A DNA stretch of 44,469 nt from NCBI GenBank assembly GCA_963766735.1, contig CAVYBU010000032.1, forward strand, positions 1 to 44,469. Reading direction: 5' to 3'. This stretch comes from an uncultured Chloroflexia bacterium. Its GTDB lineage: Bacteria; Chloroflexota; Limnocylindria; Limnocylindrales; CSP1-4. Positions 1 through 20,964 of the stretch are shown one piece after another (within the stretch, counting starts at the first letter, position 1; every line of letters begins with the position of its first letter). The position numbers and the translations under genes were made by a program. The notes below the pieces were generated by a model that saw nothing but the letters and a program-made list of their open reading frames with translations, was not told the DNA's origin and did no database searches.

Positions 1-218
1 CGCGCTCCGGGCCGGGAGCATTGCCTCGCCGCTGCCGGCCGATGGGTTGCCACACACGCCCCAGACCGATGCTGGACCGCGATCGTCCAAGGTGGGACGA
101 TACGGGTCCCTCCGGCGTCGGGAGCGATCAGCGGCGAGGGAGACGTCTATTGCGCGACGAGCAAGGGCGCGCCAAGCGGGGATCGGCGAAGGACGGTGGC
201 TCCGAGGTAGGGCCGCGG

Positions 219-3200
219 GTGCCCCTTGTTGTGCCCGCGAAGGTCCGCGCACCGGTCCCGGATGCGTTGCCTCGCGAGCGCCTGGAGGCCCGCCTGGCCG
301 AGGCCTTCGGCAAGCGCCTCACGCTCGTGGTTGCACCCGCCGGCTCGGGCAAGACGACGCTCGTCGCGCGGTTCGCCGCGACCAGTGGCGCGCCCGTGGC
401 CTGGTATCGGGCAGAGACCTGGGACGCGGACGAGGACTCGTTCGTCCGCCACCTCGAGGCGGCGCTGCTGTCCGCGTTGCCGGGGCTGCCTGGCGGCTGG
501 GTGACGATCGAGGACGCGGCACGCGCCATGGAGGCTCACCCCGGCCCTGCCCCTGCCCCTGCCCTTCTCGTGATCGACGACTTCCACGCACTCGAGGACA
601 CGGCGGCCGAAGCGGCGTTCGGTCGCCTCGTGGACTGGGGGCCGACCTGGCTCACGCTGGTGCTGGTGTCGCGCGTGGCTCCCGGCCTCAACCTGTCCCG
701 CCTCCGGGTTTCTGGAGACCTGCTGGAGGTGGGGACGGACGACCTGCGGTTCCGCGCCTGGGAGGTGGAGCAGCTCTTCCGCGATGTCTACCACGACCCC
801 GTGCCGCCGGCCGACCTCGCCGTGCTCGCGCGGCGGACGGAGGGATGGGCGGCCGGGCTGCAGCTGTTCCACCTGGCGACCCGAGGCCGGTCTGCAGAAG
901 AGCGTCGGCGGGTCCTGGGCGGCCCGGGCAGCAGTGGACGCCTGCTGCGCGAGTACCTGGCCCAGAACGTGATGGTCGGCCTGCCAGCCGAGCTGCGCGA
1001 GTTCCTGATGGACACGTGCGTCCTCGGGCGGCTGTCTGGGGGCCTCTGCGACCGGCTGCGAGGGACATCGGGCAGCGGGTTGCTCCTGGACGAGCTTGCC
1101 CGGCGAGGCGTGTTCACCGTTCCGGCCGAGGACGGGACCGACGCCTACCGCTACCACGAGGTCCTCCGCCAGCACCTCGATCGGATGCTGGTCGAGGAGA
1201 TCGGGGAGGCTGCGGCACGGGTGCGCCACGGCGCCGCGGGCCGGATTCTGGAGGCCGAGGGCGCGCTGCCCGAGGCCCTGCGCGCCTACTGTCGCGCAGA
1301 GGACTGGGCTGAAGTCCGGAGACTGCTCGGCGGCGAGGGCGAGCGCCTGGCTGCCAGCCTGGCCGCGAACGAAGCCGGGGGCTGGATCGAGGCGTTGCCG
1401 CCCGGCATCGAGCGCCACGACCCATGGGTGGCGCTGGCGGCCGCCCGTCGGGCCCGCAATGACGGGCGCTGGGCAACGGCGCTTGCCTCGTACGCCCACG
1501 CGGAGGCCGAATTCGGGCCAGCGCGGGCCTCGGATGTCCCGCGTCGGGAGCGCCTGGCCCTGGCGGCGTGGATGGATCCGTCTGCCATCCCGCCGGCGGA
1601 CGCCTCCGGGGTTCTGCGCGCCGGCCTCGTGCGGGAGCCCGCAGCCGTCGCCAGGGCCCACCGCGGTGGGGCTGATGCGGCCATGCCCGTCGCGCGTGGG
1701 CTGCTCGCACTGGCCGCGGGGGACGTATCACTTGCAGGGCGTCTGCTCGGTGAGGCGGCGAACGGCGGCGAGCCAGGCCCTGTCGCGTGCGCGGGGGCCC
1801 GGCTGGGCTCGGTCGTGTCCGCGCTCCTTGCGGGTGAGCCGCCCGATGCGCGGGCGTTCGATCGCGCGGTCGAGGACGCGGAACGGGCCGGTTCCCCGTG
1901 GCTGGCTCGACTTGGTCGCAACCTTGCGCAGCGACTGGGTCCGGGTGGGTGGGATCGGAGGACCACGGGAGGGCGCGGGGGGGTTGAACGCCCACCGGTC
2001 GGGAGTTCGGAACCGACCGAGGAGCCCTGGTCGCGTGCGCTCCTTGCGCTGGCGGCGGCGTGGGCCGCGCCGGACGGTCCGGAGACTGCCCTCGACGATG
2101 CCGAGCGCGCCGCGGACGGCTTCCGGCAGCTTGGGGCGGGGGTTCCGGAGGCGTGGGCCCGGGCAGTGGGGGCCCTGGCCGCGTCATGGGCGGGAGAGCC
2201 GGATGCGAGGGAGGCGGCTCTCGCCGCGGAGAGCTGCGGCCGGGCAACCGGGACGCCGGCGGCCCGCGGGCTCGCGCTTGCGGCGCTGACGCGTCTCGAA
2301 GGAACCTCAAACCCCGACCATCCTCAGTTCGCCGCGGTCGCGGCGGCGGACAGCGGGCTCGCCCTGCCGCGCTGGGCCTGCCCCGGGCGCCAGAGCCTGG
2401 CCGACAGCAGCCCGGGTCTGATCCGGAATGTGGAGGAGGAGCCTGGCATTGCCGCCAGCCCGGGATCCGGCAACGGTGTGGGTGAGGGTCAGGCCGGGCA
2501 GGCGGATACTGGAGGCGGCCACAGGCCGGGAGCGCCGGTTCGTATCCGTCTCCTGGGCGGGTGTGCCCTCGACGTCGATGGCCGGATGATCGCCCTTGAC
2601 CGCGCCAAGCCCCGCGTCCGCTCGCTGTTCCGGCTCCTTGCGCTTCATGCGGGAGGCCCCGTCCATCGCGAGGTCATCCAGGAGGCGCTGTGGCCCGATG
2701 CGGACGCAACCGCGGGGTCGCGCAGCCTGCACGTGGCCCTGACGGCACTTCGGCGCCACCTGGACGACGCGGCAACGCCGCTCGACGGACGCCTCGTGGC
2801 ACGCGAGGGAAACGCATACCGGCTGGACGTGGGACCGGACGACGTGGACCTCGGCCGATTTGACCGCGCGATCGCCGCCGGGCGGGCAGCGCGGGCGCGG
2901 GGCGAGGCCTCTGCCGCCCCATTCGCCCAGGCCATCGACCTCTACGGCGGCGAGCTGTTGCCCGAGGAGGGCCCGGCGGAGTGGGTGACGGAGCGGCGTG
3001 ACCAGTGCCGCACTCGTGTGGTGGAGGCGGCACGGGGTCTGGCCGAGGAGGCTCTGCTCGCCGGTGACCACGCGATGGTCGTGCGGGCATGCCGGTTCGG
3101 CCTGGAGCTGGATCGCTACCAGGACGCGTTCTGGCGAATGCTGATTCTGGCTCGGGAGCGTGCCGGGGAGGCCAGCGCAGCGTCACGCGATCGGCGTGAG

Positions 3201-3260
3201 TACGCCCTCGTGCTGGAGGCGCTGGGCGTTGCGGCTACGGGGGCGGCTCGGCCGTCCTGA
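219..3260 (+). CDS. MalT-like STAND NTPase transcriptional regulator with C-terminal wHTH + BTAD (SARP-type) domains
   Basis: Walker A APAGSGKTT, Walker B LLVIDDFH, MalT-type TEGWAAGLQL and YRYHEVLR motifs. C-terminal IRLLG...EALWPD...AIDLYGGELLP is the wHTH/BTAD pattern. ORF is open from 21; GTG 219 is my estimate of the start. Confidence 0.85.
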   Translation: MPLVVPAKVRAPVPDALPRERLEARLAEAFGKRLTLVVAPAGSGKTTLVARFAATSGAPVAWYRAETWDADEDSFVRHLEAALLSALPGLPGGWVTIEDAARAMEAHPGPAPAPALLVIDDFHALEDTAAEAAFGRLVDWGPTWLTLVLVSRVAPGLNLSRLRVSGDLLEVGTDDLRFRAWEVEQLFRDVYHDPVPPADLAVLARRTEGWAAGLQLFHLATRGRSAEERRRVLGGPGSSGRLLREYLAQNVMVGLPAELREFLMDTCVLGRLSGGLCDRLRGTSGSGLLLDELARRGVFTVPAEDGTDAYRYHEVLRQHLDRMLVEEIGEAAARVRHGAAGRILEAEGALPEALRAYCRAEDWAEVRRLLGGEGERLAASLAANEAGGWIEALPPGIERHDPWVALAAARRARNDGRWATALASYAHAEAEFGPARASDVPRRERLALAAWMDPSAIPPADASGVLRAGLVREPAAVARAHRGGADAAMPVARGLLALAAGDVSLAGRLLGEAANGGEPGPVACAGARLGSVVSALLAGEPPDARAFDRAVEDAERAGSPWLARLGRNLAQRLGPGGWDRRTTGGRGGVERPPVGSSEPTEEPWSRALLALAAAWAAPDGPETALDDAERAADGFRQLGAGVPEAWARAVGALAASWAGEPDAREAALAAESCGRATGTPAARGLALAALTRLEGTSNPDHPQFAAVAAADSGLALPRWACPGRQSLADSSPGLIRNVEEEPGIAASPGSGNGVGEGQAGQADTGGGHRPGAPVRIRLLGGCALDVDGRMIALDRAKPRVRSLFRLLALHAGGPVHREVIQEALWPDADATAGSRSLHVALTALRRHLDDAATPLDGRLVAREGNAYRLDVGPDDVDLGRFDRAIAAGRAARARGEASAAPFAQAIDLYGGELLPEEGPAEWVTERRDQCRTRVVEAARGLAEEALLAGDHAMVVRACRFGLELDRYQDAFWRMLILARERAGEASAASRDRREYALVLEALGVAATGAARPS

Positions 3261-3345: not shown

Positions 3346-5238
3346 TCAGTTCCTCTTGAAGAACTCGATCTCGGAGATGGAGATCGGCGCGGCTTCCGGG
3401 CCGTTGGTCGCGGTGATGGTTATCACCACGGAGTCCGCCTTTGACGCGGACAGATCGAACGTCTGCGGATCGGGAATGTCCTCGACCGTGATCTTCTGTG
3501 ACGAGCCATCCGGGAATGCGAACGTGAACTCCGCCGGACGCCTGGTGTCGACGAAGGCCTTGGCCGCACCGACGTGGAGGATGACGGCGCCCAGGTCAAC
3601 CTCCTCCTCGAAGGAGACGGCAATCGAAGGCGCCTTGTCGGTGCCCTGCCAGTCCGTGTTCGTCGCGGCATCGAACAGCAGGCGAGCCGGATGATCGGCA
3701 ACCTCGCTGCTGGCGGTGACGGACACCGGCCGTTCGATCTCGAGGGTCGGTGCGATGGCCTTGCGAACAGTGTCGACGATCCCCGGAACGCCGCCGCTGA
3801 CCGCCTGGCTGATCGTCCCCCGGAACGACGGGATACCGATGTAGCCGAAGATGCCCACTGCAACGACGAGGCCGAGCGCAAGCCCGATGAGGTTCCTGAC
3901 CTTGAGGCCCTTCCGAACGAGGCCCTTCGCGCCATCGCGGCCGGTCGGCGAGGACCCCGGCGCCATGGGGCCGATCCGCTCGCCGGCGGCGTACTGCTTG
4001 GGTGCCTTCGGGCTGCGGTGGAGGACACGCTTCCACCAGGGAGGTGGCTTCTCCGTGACCACTTGCGCCGCGCCGAGTCCGGCACCGCAACGGCGACAGA
4101 ACTTGCGGGTCGGGTCGTTGGCCTCGCCGCAGCTCCCGCAGATCCGGTCGCCTGGCTGTGCGATGCGCTGCTCGACGGTGGTGGTCGGGCGCGGGCGAGG
4201 CTGGACGACGGCGGTTGGCTGACGGGAAACAGGCTGGTCGACCTGGACCGCTTGGGGCGGGCGCGCTGCCGGTTGGGCCGGGGGGATCGGAGCCGCCGCG
4301 ATGGGCGGACGGGCGGCGGGCTGGGCAGACGCCTGCGCCGGGGCCTGCGCAGCTGGCTGGGGCGCCGCGGATGGCGGCGGAGCGCCTCCGGCGGCGCCGG
4401 AGGTGAAGGTGGTGGAGATCTTCTTCGACGGGCCGCCACGACGGGCGGCGGGTTCGGGCTCGGGTTCGGGTTCGGGTTCGGGCTCAGGCTGCGGCTCAGG
4501 CTCAGGCTCGGGTTCAGGCTCCGGCTCGGGTAGCGGCGCGGGTTCCGGCTCAGGCTCGGGCTCGGGCCCAGGCTCAGGTTCGGGCTCCGGTAGCGGCTCA
4601 GGTTCGGGCTCAGGTAGCGGCTCGGGTAGCGGCTCAGGCTCAGGCAGCGGCTCAGGCACCGGCTCAGGCTCAGGCAGCGGCTCAGGCAGCGGCTCGGGCG
4701 CCGGCTCCGGTTCGGGTTCCGGCTCGGGTTCCGGTTCGGGCTCAGGCTTGGGCAGCGGCTCGGGCTCAGGTAGCGGCTCGGGCGCCGGCTCAGGCTCAGG
4801 TTGCAGCTCGGGTTCGGGCGCCGGTAGCGGCCTAGGCTCAGGCTCAGGTTCGGGTTCAGGCTCGGGCTCAGGCTCAGGCAGCGGCTCAGGCAGCGGCTCG
4901 GGCGCCGGCTCCGGCTCAGGTTGCAGCTCGGGTTCGGGTGCCGGTAGCGGCTCGGGCTCAGGTCGCGGCTCGGGCGCCGGCTCCGGCTCCGGTTCGGGTT
5001 CAGGTAGCGGCTCGGCCTCCGGCTCGGGCGCGGGTTCGATCACCACGATCCGGTCCGAGGCCGACCACCCGCGTGAGGACGTCGTCGCCGGAACCTCCGG
5101 CGACTCGACCACGGCCTCCGGGACATCCTCATCCGCGGTTTCTGCCTTCTTGCCCACCCACTCCAGGAATTGGCCGCAGTCTCCGCAGAACGCATCCGCC
5201 GCATCGTTCCTGTGTCCGCAGTTCCCGCAGACGATCAC
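3346..5238 (-). CDS. CisA-like bitopic membrane protein: double zinc ribbons, long Pro-Glu linker, single TM, C-terminal discoidin/glycan-binding-like beta domain
   Basis: CGNC...CGDC...FLEW and CGSC...CRRC ribbons, [23 protein letters not shown]-terminal TASS...LFD...W...ISEIEF. Last gene of the CIS structural operon. GGGGAG upstream of the GTG start. Confidence 0.8.
4450..5037 (-). repeat. Coding (Pro-Glu)n low-complexity repeat with internal duplicated blocks
   Basis: About 190 codons of [10 protein letters not shown]. The block [21 protein letters not shown] occurs twice. Confidence 0.9.
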
Positions 5239-10330: not shown

Positions 10331-11068
10331 TCAGGCGCCACGCGCCGCGTCGGCGACGGTCGGGATGAGGAGGACGGTGCCCGCCCGCAGCCGGAGCGGG
10401 TCGTCGATCCCGTTGAGCTCCGCGATCGCCCGCCAGTAGGCAGGCTTGCCCAGCTCCTGGAATGCGACGGACTGGAGCGTGTCGCCCTCGATCATCGTGT
10501 GCACGCGGCGGCTGTTGATCGAGTGCGAGGTCGGGTTCTGGGGGACGATGTCCTTGGGCTGGCCTTCGATGGTGATATCCACCTTGGCCTGGACCGGCGT
10601 CCCATCCTTGCGGAACACCGTGTAGTTCACGACGACGCTCTTGAGATACCCGCTGAAGGTGTCGAGCTGCTTGTTGCCACCCCACTGGAACGACACCAGG
10701 GGAGGGCAGGGCGTCATCTTGCGAATGGAGTCCTCGGTCGCGTGCGTCCAGCGCAGCAGGGTCGAGATCTTCGGCGTGACGTCGCCGGCTGCCGAGGAGA
10801 AGTCGTCGAAGAACAGCTGGGTCGTCAGCGTCATCGCGTTGGTGCCGCTGAACTGTGGGGTACCACCGGGCTTGGCCGCCGTCGAGTTGCGGGTGACGTT
10901 CAGCGTCTGCGTGAGCCGGTACTCCGTGGGATTGAACATGCACTCGATCTCGGTGGCACCATCGGGCAGGTTCGGGGGATTGCAGACGAGCTTCGCCTTG
11001 TCCGGCTTGACCAGGCCCAGCGTCTCCCCGATCGCTGAGGCTGCCGATCCGACCGCGTCCATGACCAT
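10331..11068 (-). CDS. CIS tube initiator with C-terminal LysM-like domain (Afp7-like)
   Basis: CMFNPTEY...PPLVSFQWG...FRKDGTPVQAKV...QNPTS; LysM-like EGDTLQSVAFQELGKPAYWRAIAELNGIDDP. Confidence 0.88.
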   Translation of the reverse strand: MVMDAVGSAASAIGETLGLVKPDKAKLVCNPPNLPDGATEIECMFNPTEYRLTQTLNVTRNSTAAKPGGTPQFSGTNAMTLTTQLFFDDFSSAAGDVTPKISTLLRWTHATEDSIRKMTPCPPLVSFQWGGNKQLDTFSGYLKSVVVNYTVFRKDGTPVQAKVDITIEGQPKDIVPQNPTSHSINSRRVHTMIEGDTLQSVAFQELGKPAYWRAIAELNGIDDPLRLRAGTVLLIPTVADAARGA

Positions 11069-11077
11069 CGCGCGGCC

Positions 11078-11563
11078 TCAGATCGAAGCGCCGACGGGGC
11101 CGGCGACCGACACTGCGCCGGCCAGCAGGCCACCCAGCGCACCGAGCCCGATGATCTCCTGGTAGGTGATCTCGAGCGTCTCGGTCGCGACGCTGTTGCT
11201 CATCAGGTCAAGGCTCGGGCCGCTCCACTTGACCGGGACGACCCCCGCCAGGTTCCAGGTCGTGATCTCCGAGCCACCCGCGGTCATGGCCGTGATGGCC
11301 ATCGTCTGGGGCAGGACCGCGATCATGTTGCTCTGCAGCCACATCATGAGCAACGGCGAGGTCGAGTCAACGGGCCGGCTGAGGCGCAGGTTCGTGTACT
11401 TGCACGGCCCCAGGATCTTGTGCGTGTAGCCGTTGACACCACCCTCGCGATATTCGGTGACCTGGTACTCGAACCCGAGGCCCTCGATCTTGGTCCAGAT
11501 CCCGAGCGGGATGAACCCGTCGATGGTGCACTTGTACGCGATGCTGACTGCGGGATCGCCCAT
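11078..11563 (-). CDS. Second tail tube protein (T4 gp19-like, Afp5-like)
   Basis: EGLGFEYQVTEYREGGVN...KYTNLRLSR...WNL...PVKWSGP...VATETLEI. Confidence 0.9.
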   Translation of the reverse strand: MGDPAVSIAYKCTIDGFIPLGIWTKIEGLGFEYQVTEYREGGVNGYTHKILGPCKYTNLRLSRPVDSTSPLLMMWLQSNMIAVLPQTMAITAMTAGGSEITTWNLAGVVPVKWSGPSLDLMSNSVATETLEITYQEIIGLGALGGLLAGAVSVAGPVGASI

Positions 11564-11572
11564 CGGTCCTCC

Positions 11573-13585
11573 TTAGAACGCGTCGAAGGTGAGGCCCTTG
11601 GCCTCGCGCTCGTGGATCACCTCGGCGCGGAGGTGGGTTCGGAGCCGCCCGAACAGTGCCCGGGCGAGCTCGTCGAGCTCGGCGTCGGAGTGCCCCTCGG
11701 CCGGTCCTTCGGCAGCCGGCGCCGCACCCTCGACCCGCTGGACGATCGGCGTCGCGGTGATCGAGGGGACTGCGGTGCCGGAGCCGCCGCCCGACGGTGA
11801 CGTCTGCACGGTGGGGGAGGCGGCGGGTGTCGGGGCGTCGCCCATGATCCGGCTCGCGACGGGGGTCGCGGCGGCCACCCGGCCGGGCTCGGATGCCGGC
11901 GCCGCCCACCTGGCAAGCGCGAGGGGAGGGGCGGTGGTCCTGACCGGTTGGTGACCTGGGCCGTCACCGGCACCGCTGGCGGCCGGCGCCCAGGGCTGCG
12001 GGACGGTGGATGGTGCCACCATGTTCCGCTGGAGGTCGGCCGCTGCTGACGAAGCCGATCCGGCACCCGTCAAGGATGAACCCGTGCCGTCCCGGGGCGG
12101 GAACGTGATCTCGCGCGGACCCGCGGCCCCCGCCGGTTCGCCGGGGCCCGGCGCCATGGCAGCGAGCGGGCCGATCTGGACCCGGGGCGGTCGTGAGTCC
12201 ATCGGACCGCCCGGCCCGGATGGCGCGGTCACGGTCGCCGGGAGCTGGTCATCGGGCGCCCAGCGGACCGCGACCGGGAGCGAGGAATCCGTCGGCGTGG
12301 CTCCGGGTGTCGTGGTCCGCGTCGACGCGCGCTGGGCGGTCACCGTGGTATGCAGCGGGGTCGGCCGCAGCGGCCGTGGGCCCACGAGTGGGCGCGTGGC
12401 GGACCCGGCGCTCCCCGGCGCGGCCCCGGATGGGGAGACCGTGGCGTCGACCCTCGGCGGGGCCGGTTCGGTGGGCTCGTCACGGCGCAGCCCGGCGACG
12501 GGCAGGTTCGGGAGTCGTCGCGCAGCGGTCGTGTCGCCGGCGTTGCCCGCGGCTGATCCATGCGACGCGGACATGTCCGCCATCGGTGCGTGTGCGTCCG
12601 GGACGGGCAGACCGTCCGATGCCGATGACCCCGCCGGCATCTGGGGCGGCGGACGCAGTGGGAGTCGCTGGGCGACGGCGCTCGCCGGCTTGACCGGCAT
12701 TGGGGCGCCCAGGCCCGCGCGGCGCGATGCGCCGGCCGGAGCCCCGGTATCGGCGGCGCCGCCTGCGGGCGAGGCAGGCTCGGTCGCGCTCCGCCGCGGC
12801 GACGCGTGCATCGCCGCGGAAGCTGCCTGGGCAGTCGACGCCGCGGGACCCGGGCGCGAACCAGGGCCCGGGGCCTCGGCCCATCGACTGATGGCCTTCG
12901 GCACGGGCAGGCTGCCACGCGACGCGGACCCGGCCGACGCGGCGCTTCTCTGCGCGGCAGTGGCCGGCCGGGATCCGGAGGCGGCGTTTCGCGAGACCCC
13001 GCGCGCCGGCAACGGTGCGAGCGTGGGTGTCGTTCGGGTGAGCGGCTGTGGCATCGGCGTGACGGTTGCCGCCGGGGGGACCGTGGCAAGCTGCCGGACG
13101 GGTGCGCGTTCCGGCTCCAGGGTCGCCGACGCGGACGCTCCCGCCTCGGGCCCGGCGGATCCGATGAACCCGTCGTCGGCGAACGGGGATGTCTCGACGC
13201 CCCCAGCAGTCCGGTGTTGGACCGGGCGGGTCGGCAGGGGAGCGTGTGAGGTCAGGCTGGGTACGGGTCGTGCGTGGGCGACGACCAGCCCCGGCGGCGC
13301 GGACGGGCCCGCGTCGTGGCCGAGGGGCTGGAGGATCGGTGGCAGCGGTCGATAGCCCGGAACCTCGTCCAGGAACGGCCCGCTGGGCGCCACGAGCGGA
13401 GCCGACCCGACAGTGCGCTGGATCGGCGGCAGGGCAGCCCACGCGCCCTGCGGGGCAGGGACGAAGACCGGTTCGGCGCCGGCGGCCGGACGCGCGTCAG
13501 CACCGCCGTCCCCCGTTGCGGCGGAGGACGGCCCGTCGGGCGACGTCCTGCGGCCGAACGGCCACGGCAGGCGCACGGGGCTCAT
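11573..13585 (-). CDS. Low-complexity Ala/Pro-rich CIS protein with a helical C-terminus; positional tape-measure or lumen candidate
   Basis: ATGA-coupled to the upstream small ORF. N-terminal WAALPPIQRT, C-terminal ELDELARALFGRLRTHLRAEVIHEREAKG. Function inferred from position. Confidence 0.65.
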   Translation of the reverse strand: MSPVRLPWPFGRRTSPDGPSSAATGDGGADARPAAGAEPVFVPAPQGAWAALPPIQRTVGSAPLVAPSGPFLDEVPGYRPLPPILQPLGHDAGPSAPPGLVVAHARPVPSLTSHAPLPTRPVQHRTAGGVETSPFADDGFIGSAGPEAGASASATLEPERAPVRQLATVPPAATVTPMPQPLTRTTPTLAPLPARGVSRNAASGSRPATAAQRSAASAGSASRGSLPVPKAISRWAEAPGPGSRPGPAASTAQAASAAMHASPRRSATEPASPAGGAADTGAPAGASRRAGLGAPMPVKPASAVAQRLPLRPPPQMPAGSSASDGLPVPDAHAPMADMSASHGSAAGNAGDTTAARRLPNLPVAGLRRDEPTEPAPPRVDATVSPSGAAPGSAGSATRPLVGPRPLRPTPLHTTVTAQRASTRTTTPGATPTDSSLPVAVRWAPDDQLPATVTAPSGPGGPMDSRPPRVQIGPLAAMAPGPGEPAGAAGPREITFPPRDGTGSSLTGAGSASSAAADLQRNMVAPSTVPQPWAPAASGAGDGPGHQPVRTTAPPLALARWAAPASEPGRVAAATPVASRIMGDAPTPAASPTVQTSPSGGGSGTAVPSITATPIVQRVEGAAPAAEGPAEGHSDAELDELARALFGRLRTHLRAEVIHEREAKGLTFDAF

Positions 13586-13740
13586 CCCTCCTCGGACAGG
13601 CGCTTGTTGATTCGGCCGATCTCCTCCACGAAACGGAGCCTGAGCGGATGCTCAAGATCGAGGATGGTGTCCATCGGCCAGTGGAAGTGGTAGGCGACGT
13701 ACGCGACCTCCTCGAACAGCCGGTCTGTCGCGTACGTCAT
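13582..13740 (-). CDS. Small DUF6760-like CIS protein (52 aa), absent from the ORF track; possible gpT-like frameshift extension
   Basis: Translated by hand: MTYATDRLFEEVAYVAYHFHWPMDTILDLEHPLRLRFVEEIGRINKRLSEEG. ATGA overlaps at both ends. Confidence 0.85.
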   Translation of the reverse strand: MTYATDRLFEEVAYVAYHFHWPMDTILDLEHPLRLRFVEEIGRINKRLSEEG

Positions 13741-14171
13741 GATTCCCCCAGGCGCTGCTCACCCGCCATGTCGACGGTGAACCCGTGGTTGCACGAGGGG
13801 CAGGTCACCGAAGCCTGGGTGTGACCCTCCTGGTTGATGCGCCGGTACAGGTCCTGCAGGAAGGCGAGATCGGAGGCGAACAGGCCCTCGATCACGCCCG
13901 TATGCACCTGAGCCAGCGTGCCGAGCTTGGTGATCACCCGGGACAGGAGGAGCACCGTGAGGTAGGCCTCGTTCTCGCGGACCCGGGGGTCCCGCTGGGG
14001 AATGATCTCGTCGCGGGCCGTCGCGAGGCGCATGACGCCCTCGCGGTGGACCGCCCCGGTCCCGTCGACGTAGCCGCGGGGGAGCACGAACGCATACTCG
14101 GTGCGGAGGGCATCAGGCACGTTCGCGCTCCCAGGCTCGATCGGGATCTCGGGCAAGGCCGCAGCCGTCAT
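13737..14171 (-). CDS. Tail assembly chaperone-like protein
   Basis: LRTEYAFVLPRGYVD...GVMRLATARDEI...LFASDLAFLQDLYRRIN...CPSC, directly after the tube gene. Confidence 0.8.
   Translation of the reverse strand: MTAAALPEIPIEPGSANVPDALRTEYAFVLPRGYVDGTGAVHREGVMRLATARDEIIPQRDPRVRENEAYLTVLLLSRVITKLGTLAQVHTGVIEGLFASDLAFLQDLYRRINQEGHTQASVTCPSCNHGFTVDMAGEQRLGES
13743..13749 (-). other. Candidate -1 ribosomal frameshift slippery heptamer G GGG GAA
   Basis: Minus strand CTG GGG GAA TCA TGA. The -1 frame reads GGA ATC ATG ACG TAC, in frame with 13582..13740. Confidence 0.6.
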
Positions 14172-14178
14172 CAACGGC

Positions 14179-14613
14179 CTAGCCCTTGCTCAGCGTCTCG
14201 CAGGAGAGGGTGGCCTCCTCGATCTGCACCCCGCTGGTGGTTGCGCCACCCTCGGAGAGCGAGATCTTGGACACCATCGCGTTGGTGAAGTTGTAGCGCA
14301 GGACCTCCGCGCCGAGGGTGTCCATCAGGATCACCGACCCGTTGCGGCGGTCCGGCGTTCCCTGCATCACCGCGGTGTGCCACTCCCACAGCTCGGTGGC
14401 GCCGGTGAGGCCCCGCTTGAGCGTGACGGTGGGGGTCTTGGGCTTGCCCGGCAGCTTGCCGATGTAGACCTTGCCCTGTTCGGTGACGTACGGGTTGTCG
14501 ACGATCTCCACCTCGCTCGAGATCCCCGAGACGGAGCTGAAGTTCGCGACGACGCCCAGACCGTCGATGTCGAGCAGGACGTTTCCCTGGAGAAGGGGAT
14601 CAACCGTGGGCAT
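14179..14613 (-). CDS. Major tail tube protein (T4 gp19-like, Afp1-like)
   Basis: FSSVSGISSEVE...KLPGKPK...VTLKRG...LWEWH...RRNGSVIL...RYNFTNA...IEEATL. Confidence 0.92.
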   Translation of the reverse strand: MPTVDPLLQGNVLLDIDGLGVVANFSSVSGISSEVEIVDNPYVTEQGKVYIGKLPGKPKTPTVTLKRGLTGATELWEWHTAVMQGTPDRRNGSVILMDTLGAEVLRYNFTNAMVSKISLSEGGATTSGVQIEEATLSCETLSKG

Positions 14614-14652: not shown

Positions 14653-16164
14653 CTACTCGCTGTCCGGCGAGCCAGAGAACTGGGCGATCCGGAACACCAC
14701 GAACTCGGCCGGCTTCACGGGCGCGATGCCGATATCGACGATCAGCTGCCCCGCGTCGCGGACCTCAGGCGGGTTGTTCTCGGCGTCGCACTTGACGAAG
14801 AACGCCTGGTCGGGCGTTGCCCCAAACAGGGCGCCTTCACGCCAGACCCGGAGGAGGAACGCATTGATCGTCCGCTTCACCCGACCCCACAGCCGGATGT
14901 CATTCGGCTCGAAGACCACCCATTGGGTGCCCTCGAAGATCGACTCCTCGACGTAGTTGAAGAGCCGCCGAACGTTGAGGTAGCGCCAGGACGGGTCGCT
15001 GGAGATCGTCCGTGCGCCCCACACCCGGATACCCCGGCCGGGGAAAGCCCGGATGCAGTTGATCCCGTTCGGGTTGAGCTGGTCGTGCTCGCCCTTGGTC
15101 AGGTTGAGCGCGAGGCTGATCGCACCTCGGACGACCTCGTTGGCCGGCGCCTTGTGGACGCCGCGGGTGTCGTCGTTGCGCGCCCAGATGCCGGCCACGT
15201 GGCCGGACGGCGGGACGAACTTCGCCTGGCCCGAGAGCGGGTCGAAGACCTTGATCCACGGCCAGTAGAGCGAGGCGTACTTGCTGTCGTAGCCGGCCTT
15301 GTCGACCCGCCACTCATTGACCTGCTGGGCGTTGAGCCCTGGCGGCGCGTCGAGGATGGCGACGCGGTCGCCCATCAACTCGCAGTGCGCGATCATCGCC
15401 AGCTGGACGGCCTGAAGGCCCTCGAGATCGATGATCCCCTGCTCGTACACGGACATCAGGTCCGGCACGCTGAGCATCGTCACCTCATCGACCGCCTCGA
15501 GACCGGCGAAGCCGGTGCGATCGGCCGAGCTGCCCACGTAGTCGTCAGGCGTCACCCGAGCGGGCACGGCGGCACCGCCCCCGGCGAGCGAGACGGTTCC
15601 GGCGGCCGGGGCCTCAATGCTGCCGACCTCCTCGATCGTGATCGTCTTCGACTGGGCCTTGACGACCGTCGCGACGTTCTGCTTGCCCCTGCCCGCGGTC
15701 AGATTGTCGAATGTCTCGACGGCCTTGCCGTGCGACTTGACGACGAGCTTGAACGTGCCCTCGGCCGCGTCAGCCGCGGGCTCGACCTCGACGCTGAGGT
15801 CGTTGCCACCGGGGCCCGCTTCGAGCGCGGCGACACGGAAGGCGGGCTTGCCCTTCTCGGCTGCACTCTGCAGCTCGGCGCTGGCAGCGGGCATGACACC
15901 GTCGGCGCCGACGCGCACGACATAGCAGGCGCCGCCGCCGTTGAGGAAGTAGCCGTACACGGCGTGCGCGAGGTAGGAGCCCTCCACGAACTCCCCGAAC
16001 CCGGATGTGAACTGACTCCAGTTCGTCACCAGCGTGGGAGTGTTCGCGGGTCCGCGGGCAGCCAGCCCTACAAACGCGGCAACAGCTGTGCCGACGCCCT
16101 CGATCGGGCGGGACCCAGCCTCCACCTCCTCGACGTAGACGCCAGGCGAGAGATAGTTCGGCAT
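14653..16164 (-). CDS. Contractile tail sheath protein
   Basis: YLSPGVYVEE...AAFVG, YWPWIKV, PPSGHVAGIWARND..RGVHKAPAN, RVWGART, WRYLNVRR, VFEPN, APVKPAEFVVFRI. Confidence 0.97.
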   Translation of the reverse strand: MPNYLSPGVYVEEVEAGSRPIEGVGTAVAAFVGLAARGPANTPTLVTNWSQFTSGFGEFVEGSYLAHAVYGYFLNGGGACYVVRVGADGVMPAASAELQSAAEKGKPAFRVAALEAGPGGNDLSVEVEPAADAAEGTFKLVVKSHGKAVETFDNLTAGRGKQNVATVVKAQSKTITIEEVGSIEAPAAGTVSLAGGGAAVPARVTPDDYVGSSADRTGFAGLEAVDEVTMLSVPDLMSVYEQGIIDLEGLQAVQLAMIAHCELMGDRVAILDAPPGLNAQQVNEWRVDKAGYDSKYASLYWPWIKVFDPLSGQAKFVPPSGHVAGIWARNDDTRGVHKAPANEVVRGAISLALNLTKGEHDQLNPNGINCIRAFPGRGIRVWGARTISSDPSWRYLNVRRLFNYVEESIFEGTQWVVFEPNDIRLWGRVKRTINAFLLRVWREGALFGATPDQAFFVKCDAENNPPEVRDAGQLIVDIGIAPVKPAEFVVFRIAQFSGSPDSE

Positions 16165-16348: not shown

Positions 16349-17068
16349 ATGATCCACGATGTCGATCAGCTGCTCGAGCGGCTCGTTCGCCGCGACGCCC
16401 TGAACGGGTCGGCGGTGGACCTCGTGTTCGACGCCCCCACCAAGGACTGGGTCGCGCGACGCAGTGGCCCTGCGGTGGACCTGTACCTGTACGACATCCG
16501 TGAGGACCTCCAGCGGCGCGTGCCTGCCTGGGAGGACGTCCGCAAGCCTGGAGGCCAGGTATCCGACCGGCGTCTCCCGCCACGGCGCTTCCGCCTTGCG
16601 TACCTCGTGACGGCATGGACCCAGCGACCAGAGGACGAGCACCGCCTCCTGTCGTCGCTGCTGGGCTGCTTCCTGCGCAACCCGATGCTGAAGCCGGGCG
16701 AGCTCGGCGGATCGCTGGAGGAGACGGACCTGCCCGTCTACATCGACGTCGGCCAGCCCGAGAGCCAGGAGCGATCGCTTGCCGACATCTGGTCGGCGCT
16801 GGGCGGCGAGCTCAAGCCGTCACTCGACGTCGTGGTGACGGCGCCCATCGCCGTCAGCCTGTCGGCGCCGTTCGGTCCGTCGGTGCTCGGAGGACCGGAC
16901 ATCGGGATCTCGGCCGGCGACGGACCGAGCGAACGAGCGTCCGGTCGACTCGCCGGTGGTTCGGGCCGGCCACCGTTGGAGTCGGCGACCGAGGAGATCG
17001 TCCCGCACGCCACCGGCAAGCCCGATCCCGACGTGCAGTCCCGGGCTCGCGGCACCCGCCGGCGATGA
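16349..17068 (+). CDS. DUF4255 / Pvc16-like sheath terminator (cap) protein
   Basis: MIHDVDQLL...FDAPTKDW...VDLYLYDIRED...YLVTAW...DEHRLLS...IWSALGGELKPSLDVVVT. Confidence 0.88.
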   Translation: MIHDVDQLLERLVRRDALNGSAVDLVFDAPTKDWVARRSGPAVDLYLYDIREDLQRRVPAWEDVRKPGGQVSDRRLPPRRFRLAYLVTAWTQRPEDEHRLLSSLLGCFLRNPMLKPGELGGSLEETDLPVYIDVGQPESQERSLADIWSALGGELKPSLDVVVTAPIAVSLSAPFGPSVLGGPDIGISAGDGPSERASGRLAGGSGRPPLESATEEIVPHATGKPDPDVQSRARGTRRR

Positions 17069-19218
17069 CCGACACCGCGCCGGCCAGCGCGGCGGCGGCC
17101 CCTGGTCCGGCGACGACCCCCGGCGTCCCGCCCGCGGCACAGCTGGCCGGAGACCCATCTCTGGCGTACCTGCACGCGCGCGTGGGGCTCCTCGAGGTCC
17201 GCGTCCGGGCCGCCGTTGAGCGGCGCCGCGCTTCTGATGCCGACCCGGAGGACCGGTTCCGCGGCCTGTACATCTCCGAGGCGCAGGTCGACGCGCTGCT
17301 CGTGGGTCCTGCGGCGCCCCTCGTCCCGGCCGCGGAGGAGGAGGTCGCCACCGGCCTGCTCGCGGAGCTCGAAGCGCGGGCCGCGGAGGCCGAACAGGCC
17401 GGGGCCCGGATCCGCCTGCGCGAGCTCGAGCGCGCGTTCGGCCTGCAGCCGGTGGATCTCGAGCTGCTCCTGGTAGCGCTCGCGCCCGACCTGGACCCGC
17501 GCTTCGAGCGTCTCTACGGCTACCTCCACGACGATGTGTCGCGGCGGCGGGCCAGCGTCGGCCTGGCGCTCGAGTTGTGCGGGTCGATCGGCCGTCCCGC
17601 GGCGAACCCGGCGCGCGGGCGCCTGGGGTCACTCGCCCCGCTGCTTGCCGCGCAACTGCTCATCGTGGAGGACGTCGACCGGCCCTCGCTGACGCGCTCC
17701 CTCCGGGTGCCCGACCGCGTCGCCGCCCACCTGCTCGGTGACGATTCCCCAGACCCGGCGGTCGAGGCTCTGCTCACGACGTCGATCGCGGTGAACCTGG
17801 ACGAGGTGGACGCGGTGACACGTGGCCTGGCGGCAGGCCTGCCTCTCGTGTACCTGATCGAGCGCCCTGGCGCCTCGGGCCGCTCGCTCGGCTGGACCGC
17901 CCTGGAGCGCCTGTCGCGGCCGGCGATCGCGCTCGACCTCGCGCGCCTCGCGCCGGGCGACGATCCGGTTGCCATCGCCGCCGCGGCGTCCCGCGAGGCG
18001 CGGCTGCGTGGAGGCGGGCTGGTGGTTGGGCCCGTGGAGGCTCTCGTCGAGCGAGGCGCCGCCGCGGTCCGCGCGTTCGCCGAGCTGCCCGGACCCGTGA
18101 TCCTGGTCGGCGGCCGGGACTGGGATCCGGCCTGGTCGCGCGAACCACCGCTCGTGCTCGACGCGCCCATTCCGACCGTCGCGCAGCGCCACGAGCTATG
18201 GGCCGAGTCGCTCAACGGCGACACGCCCGAGGGGTTCGACCCCGTGGTGGCCACCATCGCATTCCGCCTCGCGCCGGAGCAGATCGAGCGAGCCGCGGTC
18301 GCGGCGCGCCGTGCAGCAGCTGCCGCCGCACGCTCGATGACCGTCGCGGACGTTGCCGCCGGCGCTCGTGCCCAGAACGCCGCCGGCCTGGAGCACCTCG
18401 CCCGGCGGATTGTGCCCTCGGTCGCCTGGGAGGACCTGGTGCTGCCGTCCGTCGTCGAGCAGCAGCTGAGGGAGCTGACGGCGCGCGCGCGTCACCGGGA
18501 CCGCGTGATCGGGCAGTGGCGGATGGGCTCCAAGGGCGCCCGAGGACTCGGGGTCACCGCGCTGTTCGTGGGCGACTCCGGGACGGGCAAGACCATGTCG
18601 GCCGAGGTCGTAGCCGGGGACCTCGGCTTCGACGTCTACGTCATCGATCTCTCGACCGTGGTCGACAAGTACATCGGTGAGACCGAGAAGAACCTGGACC
18701 GGATCTTCACCGAGGCGGATCGCGTCAACGGCGTCCTCCTGTTCGACGAGGCGGACGCGCTGTTCGGCAAGCGGTCCGAGGTCAAGGACGCCCGGGACCG
18801 CTACGCGAATGTCGAGGTCGCCTACCTCCTCCAGCGCATGGAGCGCTTCGACGGGCTGGCGGTCCTCACGACCAATCTGCGTGCCAACGTGGACGAGGCG
18901 TTCGTGCGCCGGCTCGATGCGATCGTGGACTTCCCGATGCCCGAGGAGGAGCACCGCCACCGCCTGTGGGCCCGCAACCTGACGCCGGAGCTGCCGGTCA
19001 CAGCCGACATCGACCTCGAGTTCCTCGCGCGACGGTTCAAGATCTCCGGCGGCAACATTCGCAACGTGTGCGTGACCGCGGCCTACCTCGCGGCCGCCGA
19101 GGATCGGCCCGTGGGCATGCCGGACCTGGTACGGGCCACCGAGCGCGAGTACCGCAAGCTCGGCCGGTTGACCGTGGAAGCGGAGTTCGGCGAGTACCTG
19201 GAGCTCGTCAGCAGCTGA
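17065..19218 (+). CDS. CIS AAA+ ATPase (Afp15/Pvc15-like)
   Basis: LAPDLDPRFERLYGYLHDD, Walker A GDSGTGKT, VVDKYIGETEKNL, Walker B LLFDEADALFGKR, DRYAN. ATGA overlap with the DUF4255 gene. Confidence 0.93.
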   Translation: MTDTAPASAAAAPGPATTPGVPPAAQLAGDPSLAYLHARVGLLEVRVRAAVERRRASDADPEDRFRGLYISEAQVDALLVGPAAPLVPAAEEEVATGLLAELEARAAEAEQAGARIRLRELERAFGLQPVDLELLLVALAPDLDPRFERLYGYLHDDVSRRRASVGLALELCGSIGRPAANPARGRLGSLAPLLAAQLLIVEDVDRPSLTRSLRVPDRVAAHLLGDDSPDPAVEALLTTSIAVNLDEVDAVTRGLAAGLPLVYLIERPGASGRSLGWTALERLSRPAIALDLARLAPGDDPVAIAAAASREARLRGGGLVVGPVEALVERGAAAVRAFAELPGPVILVGGRDWDPAWSREPPLVLDAPIPTVAQRHELWAESLNGDTPEGFDPVVATIAFRLAPEQIERAAVAARRAAAAAARSMTVADVAAGARAQNAAGLEHLARRIVPSVAWEDLVLPSVVEQQLRELTARARHRDRVIGQWRMGSKGARGLGVTALFVGDSGTGKTMSAEVVAGDLGFDVYVIDLSTVVDKYIGETEKNLDRIFTEADRVNGVLLFDEADALFGKRSEVKDARDRYANVEVAYLLQRMERFDGLAVLTTNLRANVDEAFVRRLDAIVDFPMPEEEHRHRLWARNLTPELPVTADIDLEFLARRFKISGGNIRNVCVTAAYLAAAEDRPVGMPDLVRATEREYRKLGRLTVEAEFGEYLELVSS

Positions 19219-20187: not shown

Positions 20188-20832
20188 CTAGATCAGCCCC
20201 TCGCGGATGGCGTATGCCACGGCGTGCGTCCGGTTCCGGAGCTCCAGCCGCGACGTGATGTCATGGATGATGTTCTTCACGGTGCGCTCGGAGTAGAACA
20301 GGCGCCCGGCGATCTCCGAGGTGTCGTTCCCGTCCGCCAGCAGCCGGACCACGGCCGCCTCGCGCTCCGTCAGGCCAGAGAACGTGAGGCCACGCGGGGA
20401 CAGCACCTGCCGCTGCAGCTGGCCGACCTGACGAAGAAGCCGCCCCAGCAGATCCGGGGGCAGCGTGCCCTCGTCCGCCGCCGCGGACCGGATGGCCGCC
20501 GCGAGGTTGCCCGCGGTCGCCTCGCTCCGGCGCAGGACGCCCGTCACGCCCGCCTCGGCCGCCGCCAGGAGCCCGCGGTCGTCCACCCGGGACACCAGCA
20601 GCAGGATCCGCCGCACGCCGCGGCCCCGCAGCGAGCGCATCTCGCCAAGCGTCGTGCTGTCCAGGTCCTCCGCCACCACCAGCGCGACGACGTCGTCCGG
20701 GAGCTCCCCGTCCACGACGCCAAACCCCTGCGCCCGGCGTAGCTGGCTGGTGATGCCGGCCCTCGAGAGCGGATCGGCGGCAGAGACGTGGACCGGGATC
20801 CGGGCCTTGAACGGGACGGGTTCGGCGACCAT
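20188..20832 (-). CDS. LuxR/NarL-family regulator with atypical receiver-like N-terminus
   Basis: C-terminal LTERE...LLADG...EIA..LFYSERTVKN...LELRNRTHAVAYA. GGGGAGGT RBS before ATG 20832. Confidence 0.88.
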   Translation of the reverse strand: MVAEPVPFKARIPVHVSAADPLSRAGITSQLRRAQGFGVVDGELPDDVVALVVAEDLDSTTLGEMRSLRGRGVRRILLLVSRVDDRGLLAAAEAGVTGVLRRSEATAGNLAAAIRSAAADEGTLPPDLLGRLLRQVGQLQRQVLSPRGLTFSGLTEREAAVVRLLADGNDTSEIAGRLFYSERTVKNIIHDITSRLELRNRTHAVAYAIREGLI

Positions 20833-20964
20833 GGTGACCTCCCCAGGGTGGTGGGTCGGGACGAGGTGGACCACGGAGCGGGCCACCGGCCCGGGATGCC
20901 GAGCCGGACGCTACGCCGCCCCTCTGTCCGGACAGTCAACGTGGACTTAACGGGCAGTGCGGAT

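Follow-up and report, generated by a model that had tools for sequence, protein, structure and literature searches.

The closest described counterpart of the gene pair considered here is found in bacteriophage P2, whose record lists the FI sheath gene, the FII tube gene, E, E+E' (annotated as a −1 frameshift) and the tape-measure gene T, which overlaps the end of E'; in Pfam, gpE belongs to PF10109 (Phage_TAC_7) and the E' extension matches PF06528 at 2.1e-22. The pair itself lies on the minus strand of contig CAVYBU010000032.1 from an uncultured Chloroflexia bacterium, analysed over a stretch of 44,469 nucleotides (nt) that is called the window below, and consists of a tail-assembly-chaperone-like gene, here named gene X, and a small open reading frame (ORF) of the Pfam family DUF6760, both located in a contractile injection system (CIS) locus. 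Judging from sequence comparison, it is highly probable that X and DUF6760 form a tail-assembly-chaperone pair of the P2 gpE/gpE+E' type, retained in a CIS together with a programmed −1 frameshift.

Like the P2 pair, that of the window serves a contractile structure, stands in the order sheath, tube, chaperone, −1 extension of about 50 amino acids (aa) and overlapping next gene, and has the frameshift a few codons before the 0-frame stop; E' and DUF6760 also share a core of the form ...(V/I)(A)...FHWP...EL.... Unlike it, the CIS pair has a G-run where P2 slips on a T-run, X comprises 145 aa with a C-terminal CxxC ribbon-like tail compared with 91 aa for gpE, the pair belongs to a CIS, which has an AAA+ ATPase, and not to a virion, and the gene after DUF6760 is not recognisable as a tape measure, whereas P2 has T. 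It is concluded that the X/DUF6760 pair would work like P2 E/E+E'. In bacteriophage lambda, gpG and gpGT likewise share one start; the two products, encoded between the tube-equivalent gene and the position of the tape measure, arise by −1 slippage. Chaperone genes of actinobacteriophages carry the identical GGGGGAA heptamer, according to the accessible part of PMC10885494, and this backs, for actinobacteriophages, the statement of an earlier sequence-only reading of the locus that phage chaperone genes use GGGGGAA; both the lambda and the actinobacteriophage pairs are siphophage systems, unlike the pair of the window. That reading had also called the locus gpG/gpGT-type and its small ORF a gpT-equivalent. 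The type of chaperone pair stands, but the closest homologue is P2 gpE/gpE+E' and not the lambda pair.

At the 3' end of X, the minus strand reads ...CAG CGC CTG GGG GAA TCA TGA, and this stop is overlapped by the start of the 52-aa ORF, which lies in the −1 frame; the arrangement that had been read from the sequence is confirmed to the base. The junction comprises the following features:

13737..14174, minus strand: gene X, tail-assembly-chaperone-like, 145 aa, the 0-frame product and gpE/gpG equivalent, with a TTG start
13749-13743, minus strand: slippery heptamer G GGG GAA, 0-frame reading CTG GGG GAA
13737..13740, minus strand: ATGA overlap of the X stop TGA (13739-13737) and the DUF6760 ATG (13740-13738)
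13696..13738, minus strand: predicted stimulatory hairpin, 12-base-pair (bp) stem with arms 13738-13727 and 13707-13696 and a 19-nt loop
13582..13740, minus strand: DUF6760 ORF, 52 aa, in the −1 frame relative to X, proposed gpE'/gpT-equivalent extension
13582..14174, minus strand: predicted X-DUF6760 fusion of about 197 aa, put together from the sequence parts

The start of X chosen in the sequence-only reading is an in-frame ATG at 14171. In two public runs, independently obtained DNA contigs (430 nt in X1, 291 nt in X2) cover the junction with 0 differences; the best DNA run holding it may be the source sample itself. Two contigs from RNA libraries (X6, 270 nt; X16, 163 nt) also span it with 0 differences; they show presence only and are uninformative on transcription, strand, level and rare slippage variants. 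One RNA contig joint skips 13712-13920, in a contig of 90-95% likeness that probably comes from another organism. The small-share runs X17-X20 and uncovered bins were given no weight.

Conservation of the slip site, the frame and the hairpin

Related loci were collected from several sources: 80 loci were gathered by similarity to X on contigs of one genome per species, 30 loci came from a sample of 401 genomes of the same phylum as the window, DUF6760 being present in 34 of them, 25 from 22 of 401 sampled Actinomycetota genomes, and 29 new ones from Streptomycetaceae genomes with DUF6760, a family present in 73 of the 151 Streptomycetaceae genomes sampled. To these were added 15 IMG/VR contigs and 11 annotated plasmid loci (nine bacterial and two haloarchaeal). 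With the plasmid loci left out, a single script run on the collection yielded 175 junctions that could be assessed, a number to be read with the fact that the loci are kin, sampled by similarity, so that all counts overstate independence. Two of the entries (L078 and L131) are one place fetched twice, and the unpublished genomes G227 (L089) and G553 (L118) are counted in the alignments and tallies, with no claim resting on them alone. The pair was found in Chloroflexota, Actinomycetota (including Streptomyces model systems), Cyanobacteriota, Pseudomonadota and Bacillota. Among these relatives, there is an abrupt step between clades in how similar the tube protein is to that of the window, with about 82-95% identity on one side and about 38-45% on the other; for X and DUF6760, identity is 64-75% and 71-75%, respectively, in those clades that were checked (L061, L067, L072), and the chaperone pair is there more conserved than the tube.

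A slippery heptamer stands in the frame of X at 168 of the 175 assessable loci and contains a G-run in 165 of them, seven loci having no heptamer. The types are GGGGGAA (103 loci), GGGGGGA (32), GGGGGGG (25), GGGGGAG (3) and GGGGAAA (2), with GGGGGGC, CCCGGGG and AAATTTT at one locus each, and the offset of the heptamer is identical in 122 of 134 loci. In class 1, which is the clade of the window, all 82 distinct sequences have GGG as their 0-frame Gly codon and the four core G's are invariant; the heptamer is kept in 29 of 29 Streptomycetaceae loci as well. The conservation that had been expected of GGGGGAA thus holds for the G-run, synonymous positions included, but not for the heptamer itself, which is not invariant. 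In the window, GGGGGAA occurs once on the minus strand, and among nine of its CIS genes Gly is encoded by GGG in 23% and Glu by GAA in 16% of cases. All nine bacterial plasmid loci have an in-frame G-run at GC contents of 42-67% (Paenibacillus, four proteobacteria and three cyanobacteria included). A G-run that merely reflects GC bias is ruled out, because the run is retained at 42-43% GC in Brasilonema, Nostoc and Pseudanabaena.

Two further observations concern the surroundings of the slip site. Three divergent relatives in which the usual type of G-run is missing have other canonical in-frame heptamers just before the X stop, CCCTTTA in L082 (about 1410-1430), AAATTTT in L152 (about 2840, a low-GC contig) and CCCGGGG in L141 (about 2920), and these possibly arose by chance, the expectation being about 1 in 256 per codon position. 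In many relatives, an element resembling GGTGA(G/T), which is complementary to the tail of the 16S rRNA, is present 6-9 nt upstream of the heptamer (in the window at about 13752-13765, minus strand; in relatives, for example, AGGTGATC) with inconstant spacing, and judging by this complementarity it could act as an upstream Shine-Dalgarno-like frameshift stimulator.

The frame relation is as regular as had been predicted for homologues, with DUF6760 in the −1 frame relative to X at 78 of 79, 30 of 30 and 29 of 29 loci in three sets. The sole exception is a long-read metagenome-assembled genome (MAG; L052) in which a single frame runs through X, DUF6760 and the next gene; it is read as an assembly error. 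In another long-read MAG (L029), an indel lies inside DUF6760, and both anomalies are probably homopolymer errors. Across loci, the −1 reading past the heptamer is consistently G-G-(I/V/M)-x-x-Y. The 0-frame tail of X is variable (ES, GS, G, E, EL or ESSATP before the stop), and its stop may come immediately behind the heptamer or up to several codons later. As the −1 reading is constant and the 0-frame tail is not, it is the −1 reading that is under selection once the heptamer is reached, which is what would be predicted for a frameshift product and not for a separately initiated gene.

The start codons provide the decisive argument. Between the heptamer and the conserved Tyr, 42 of the 168 heptamer loci have no ATG, GTG or TTG in the frame of DUF6760, and these typically read GGIAGYP, GGVAGYP or GGIRGYP in the −1 frame; six of the nine bacterial plasmid loci likewise have no ordinary start codon, and in class 1 the start position is occupied by CTG or GAG in 6 of 82 distinct sequences. 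Public annotation reflects this, since in four of the seven annotated DUF6760 genes that were checked the NCBI Prokaryotic Genome Annotation Pipeline (PGAP) has assigned a CTG, ATT, ATA or truncating internal TTG start. The RefSeq starts are CTG in Kitasatospora, ATT in Pseudanabaena and ATA in Nostoc, the Rhodococcus model begins at an internal TTG with the loss of conserved residues, and in Brasilonema the gene is not annotated at all. The gene models at these loci (L111, L187, L188, L193, L183) probably need a ribosomal-slippage join.

It might be argued that the arrangement is an artefact, with a sequencing error splitting what is really a single in-frame ORF, or that DUF6760 is a dead remnant. 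The frame anomalies of the two long-read MAGs would fit such errors, as would the presence of PF20546, the DUF6760 domain, in 8 of 41 "longer" relatives of X. These longer relatives, however, are almost all single-sequence clusters (40 of 41, with three members in the remaining one), none of the eight with PF20546 has more than one member, and these eight are read as frame errors and not as a lineage. Among the best 120 of at least 8000 X relatives, all comprise 118-166 aa, none has a Pfam domain and none is fused; therefore, in this best 120, the split form that requires a frameshift is the rule, and the split arrangement is what would be expected if a short product and a long one were both needed. 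The −1 arrangement is also present in isolate genomes, complete plasmids, the 175 loci and the independent contigs, and records this numerous and varied exclude an assembly error. Decay is contradicted by the good conservation of DUF6760, for which PF20546 scores over the cut-off in 41 of 41 relatives. Taken together, artefact and decay deserve next to no credence.

Downstream of the slip site, the minimum-free-energy fold of the window gives a perfect 12-bp stem that begins 4-5 nt past the heptamer. The stem is maintained in class 1, where 91.9% of cells are paired over the 82 distinct sequences, compared with 5-52% when the partner is slid by 1-3 columns, and the pair 30-54, which joins two synonymous third positions, occurs as GC 63, AU 4, CG 4 and GU 3 times; none of 500 shuffles reached the class 1 covariation score. 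All these counts come from related sequences in which the stems also encode conserved residues and are not independent. Third positions within the stem are frozen, both Tyr codons being TAC in 82 of 82, whereas the next Tyr codon outside the stem has C in 46 and T in 35 and third positions of the loop vary freely. In class 2, where G-Y-P stands in place of T-Y-A, the register is another one: a stem of 7+2 bp at the same 5-nt spacer joins the Tyr codon region with Val-Ala codons 21 nt later. There, 90% of cells are paired (40 sequences from several phyla), 15 cells are changed on both sides compared with 3.6 +/- 1.7 in shuffles, and one pair, for example, occurs as GC 21, AU 4, CG 2 and UA 2 times.

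The folding energy of the 52 nt after the heptamer was compared with 100 mononucleotide shuffles per sequence. The mean z-score is −4.09 in class 1 (70 of 75 below −2), −2.84 in class 2 (16 of 22 below −2) and +0.17 at heptamer-less loci where DUF6760 has its own ATG (0 of 7 below −2); heptamer and RNA structure therefore come and go together.

The structure also bears on transcriptional slippage, in which RNA polymerase would add or drop a G in the run and place a minority of mRNA in frame. A homopolymeric run of 5-7 G would suit such a process. Known sites of transcriptional slippage, however, are longer runs of A or T, the GGGGAAA variants have only four G's, and a downstream hairpin with a 5-nt spacer fits ribosomal pausing. 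No indel was seen in the RNA-library contigs X6 and X16, which is weak evidence, as contigs drop rare variants. Slippage of the polymerase is accordingly regarded as very improbable. The heptamer, the frame and the start-less loci give comparative support to the claim of the sequence-only reading that a chaperone gene of a CIS retains a programmed −1 frameshift.

Gene X, DUF6760 and their neighbours in the locus

Protein X matches the PHROG family phrog_508, "tail assembly chaperone", in 41 of 41 diverse relatives (best E value 1.3e-9; 2.2e-4 for the protein of the window), and its cyanobacterial and Rhodococcus homologues are named "phage tail assembly protein" in RefSeq; no Pfam or NCBIfam family was matched over the cut-off. 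Weak matches to T4_baseplate (PF12322) were obtained for 4 of the 41 relatives. The AlphaFold model of X (mean predicted local distance difference test score, pLDDT, 83) found no match in the PDB at an E value of 0.001 or below (Foldseek), and comparison of the X profile with PDB sequences gave nothing meaningful. Against the BFVD, the model matched five predicted phage proteins with E values from 2.6e-6 to 2.3e-4, two of which are named "baseplate hub assembly protein, T4-like" (7.7e-5 and 1.4e-4, probability 1.00). T4 gp26-like proteins of this name (PF12322) thus resemble X in its predicted structure and in the weak family matches. They differ from it in being single ORFs of about 260-270 aa, and the template-modelling scores are modest (0.38-0.47). 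We know of no frameshift for gp26. The second-ranking BFVD match of the X model is a 270-aa "baseplate protein" of the uncultured phage Myoviridae sp. ctgXL3 (E value 7.3e-6), and the same phage appears at rank 16 for the DUF6760 model (74 aa, E value 1.4, not significant). Searching 50,697 phage records by tblastn with X and with DUF6760 gave no match.

The 52-aa ORF belongs to Pfam DUF6760 (PF20546) with an E value of 9.4e-13 and 48.5 bits compared with a cut-off of 27; no NCBIfam family was found for it. Alignment of the family with the P2 E' segment gave an hhalign probability of 81% and an E value of 1.2e-5 over 27 columns that contain the shared FHWP core, and PF06528 (Phage_P2_GpE) matches 10 of 41 DUF6760 relatives weakly (best 0.021, all below cut-off). 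Sequence relations of this kind indicate that DUF6760 is probably homologous to P2 E'. Its structural model (pLDDT 92) had no BFVD match at an E value of 0.001 or below (Foldseek). A predicted complex of the tube protein with DUF6760 scored 0.00 compared with a mark of 0.32, controls being absent, and this has no bearing on binding. A small protein of about 50-60 aa among tube and baseplate genes is also known in other CISs as the spike plug Cis6/Afp6/Pvc6, as described in the accessible part of PMC8894136. Cis6 is encoded between Cis5 and Cis7, whereas in the window 10 nt separate these two genes, and DUF6760 is found two genes further upstream; the identification of DUF6760 with Cis6 was rejected as the position does not fit, no sequence having been available for comparison.

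The window as a whole is a CIS locus by its Pfam content (sheath, two tube genes, CIS_tube+LysM, Phage_GPD, Phage_base_V, Baseplate_J, Tail_P2_I and AAA), established by family scans that covered 20 of its ORFs, and the source genome is Chloroflexota-like with 71% GC. Around the junction the genes are as follows:

14653..16164, minus strand: CIS sheath gene, 503 aa (Pfam Phage_sheath_1 7.1e-26, Phage_sheath_1C 1.1e-19)
14179..14613, minus strand: CIS tube gene, 144 aa (Pfam Phage_T4_gp19 5.8e-23)
11573..13585, minus strand: 670-aa gene in the tape-measure position, its ATG overlapping the DUF6760 stop (ATGA)
11078..11563, minus strand: second tube-family gene, 161 aa (Pfam Phage_T4_gp19 4.5e-25)
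10331-11068, minus strand: CIS_tube+LysM gene, followed by spike pieces
16615..19218, plus strand: AAA+ ATPase gene, divergent, typical of CIS loci (Pfam AAA 2e-23, WHD 2.5e-28)

The 670-aa protein is rich in Ala (20%), Pro (16%), Gly (10%) and Ser and is probably disordered, with a short, conserved-looking, helix-like C-terminus. In a Kitasatospora plasmid relative, the same position is occupied by a 1243-aa DUF4157 protein, and blastp gave no match between the two. In Streptomyces davawensis, a DUF4157-type protein is described, in the accessible part of PMC11126660, as a tape-measure-related effector encoded just upstream of the baseplate genes, and according to PMC10066040 a typical tape measure is lacking from Streptomyces CIS clusters. 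The 670-aa protein is a candidate for the tape-measure or lumen-cargo equivalent. A similar C-terminal helix motif was seen by eye in a 58-aa Deinococcus protein (L112, 8973-9149) encoded beside an X homologue. Further genes at the flanks are a large BTAD/AAA/Trans_reg_C regulator (21-3260, plus strand), a LuxR-family (GerE) regulator (20188-20886, minus strand) and a 630-aa zinc-ribbon protein with an acidic repeat region (3346-5238, minus strand).

Observations at odds with a programmed frameshift, and the case for coupling

Besides the kinship of the loci, several observations weigh against the interpretation of X and DUF6760 as a frameshifting chaperone pair. The ORF of the window has its own ATG, so that the lack of an independent start seen elsewhere is not found here, and an ATG, GTG or TTG is available at the overlap in 126 of the 168 heptamer loci. 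Because of these codons, coupled re-initiation is possible in the window and at those loci; the G-run, 4-5 nt upstream of the start, could double as a Shine-Dalgarno site, and free DUF6760 may be made from the window's ATG alongside frameshifting. The claim of the sequence-only reading is further limited by six or seven heptamer-less actinobacterial loci with a stand-alone DUF6760 (L123, L127, L129, L132, L133 and L134, with L126 ambiguous). These have no hairpin, and their DUF6760 starts with its own ATG or GTG, preceded by other, varied Shine-Dalgarno-like sequences. Their X homologues share residues about 22-114 with X and then continue into a long disordered tail that replaces the CxxC segment, and the loci look like a split, stand-alone version of the pair. 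It follows from them that DUF6760 can work as a free protein. The disordered tail ends in ...IEEVGRS..R directly before the stop. Of the plasmid loci, the two haloarchaeal ones (L184 and L190, in Halogeometricum and Haloferax) have an ATG-started, longer DUF6760 gene of 89 aa; they also have a lambda-like heptamer, GGGAAAT or GGGAAAC, in the X frame, 12 nt before the stop and about 36 nt before the DUF6760 match, and on this pattern the haloarchaea may share the frameshift via a GGGAAAU heptamer.

These starts would suit two ordinary genes linked by translational coupling only, with re-initiation at the overlapping ATG or GTG, the G-run as Shine-Dalgarno sequence, a hairpin that enforces coupling and no fusion. 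In favour of this, the ATGA overlap between X and DUF6760 in the window is repeated at the junction of DUF6760 with the 670-aa gene, a canonical start is present at or near the overlap in three quarters of the heptamer loci (the 126 of 168 given above), and a stand-alone DUF6760 with its own ATG exists in the six or seven actinobacterial loci and the two haloarchaea. Yet the start-less 42 of 168 heptamer loci, and the class 1 sequences with CTG or GAG in the start position, are not accounted for in this way. In addition, protein-level conservation of the −1 frame extends upstream beyond the supposed start, the stand-alone loci use other Shine-Dalgarno-like sequences and have no hairpin, and the G-run is kept in genomes of 42% GC with no start codon after it. 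ATGA coupling alone, named in the sequence-only reading as the finding that would overturn the frameshift, therefore cannot explain the family, as the 42 loci have no ATG, GTG or TTG, and the sequences argue that coupled initiation cannot be the whole story. Coupling without any fusion product is thus considered unlikely.

Other points against a programmed frameshift concern the slip site and the proteins. GGGGGAA is not a canonical heptamer of the form X XXY YYZ; after a −1 shift, the Glu tRNA faces GGA, and a G:U pair is needed in the middle position. The variants GGGGGGA and GGGGGGG are canonical. In the accessible part of PMC10885494, GGGGGAA is the only sequence of the "fivetwo" motif among about a thousand SEA-PHAGES annotations of chaperone frameshifts, and G:U pairing is stated to give it full complementarity; as far as that part of the source goes, the support is annotation and not measurement. 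The fold of 81 nt of the window has a z-score of only −1.21 when compared with dinucleotide shuffles. For X, matches to Phage_TAC_7 were weak and limited to 4 of 41 relatives, and no similarity to P2 gpE was detectable (hhalign probability 0.05); X would therefore be a chaperone-family protein from a branch different from that of P2 gpE. The 670-aa protein matched no Pfam, NCBIfam or PHROG family and is no recognisable tape measure.

Proposed mechanism and significance

In the proposed frameshift mechanism, most ribosomes would stop at TGA and release X, while a fraction would slip back one base on G GGG GAA. Pausing at the slip site would be caused by the nearby stop codon and by the 12-bp hairpin 4-5 nt downstream; in many relatives, the 0-frame stop comes directly after the heptamer and would therefore itself pause the ribosome. 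Slipped ribosomes would continue through DUF6760 to yield the fusion of about 197 aa. For its junction, the sequence-only reading had given the peptide LG-GIMTYATDR, which is right for a slip in the P-site only (...RLG-GIMTYATDR), but a tandem slip would give ...RLGE-IMTYATDR. We infer slippage in vivo, and its rate, from the sequence. The roles of the two parts are proposed by analogy with gpGT of lambda: the X part would hold a downstream tape-measure-like or cargo protein, and the DUF6760 part would recruit tube subunits.

A broader proposal is that the −1 frameshift is ancestral and mostly obligatory in a very large group of CISs from at least five bacterial phyla, and that the fusion is the missing assembly chaperone which couples tube polymerisation to disordered or DUF4157 "tape-measure-related" proteins, sets particle length and loads cargo. 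On this proposal our judgement is evenly balanced.

Both the mechanism and the proteins are of a known kind, that is, the conserved chaperone frameshift of long-tailed phages; the proposed case is notable for its place in a cellular machine, its spread over at least five bacterial phyla and its misannotation in public records. As the sequence-only reading had supposed, no description of a programmed frameshift in CIS chaperone genes was found in the open literature, subscription papers and supplements lying outside the search, and this literature yielded no paper that mentions DUF6760. The word "frameshift" is absent from the accessible parts of PMC11126660, PMC13277306, PMC10066040, PMC6899500, PMC8213781 and PMC12210884.

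The proposed X/DUF6760 pair would give a testable function to the Pfam family DUF6760 and to the unnamed family of X, which holds at least 8000 sequence clusters, and it identifies gene models to be corrected, in which DUF6760 has been given CTG, ATT or ATA starts, shortened or omitted. As DUF6760 is present in 73 of 151 Streptomycetaceae genomes and the heptamer in 29 of 29 of their loci, the proposal can be tested in existing Streptomyces CIS models. The results suggest that CISs of the Streptomyces type would carry a phage chaperone module that is usually paired with a tape measure; since the module is present and a typical tape measure is not, the next gene is the candidate for a length-determining or lumen-loaded protein. 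In the engineering of CISs for protein delivery, recoding or splitting X and DUF6760 would abolish the fusion. Research on frameshift stimulators would also gain a large natural set of slip sites that consist of G-runs and come with two alternative hairpin registers. If the frameshift is indeed ancestral and mostly obligatory, it would be among the most widespread programmed −1 frameshifts in cellular genes that are neither viral nor of transposon origin.

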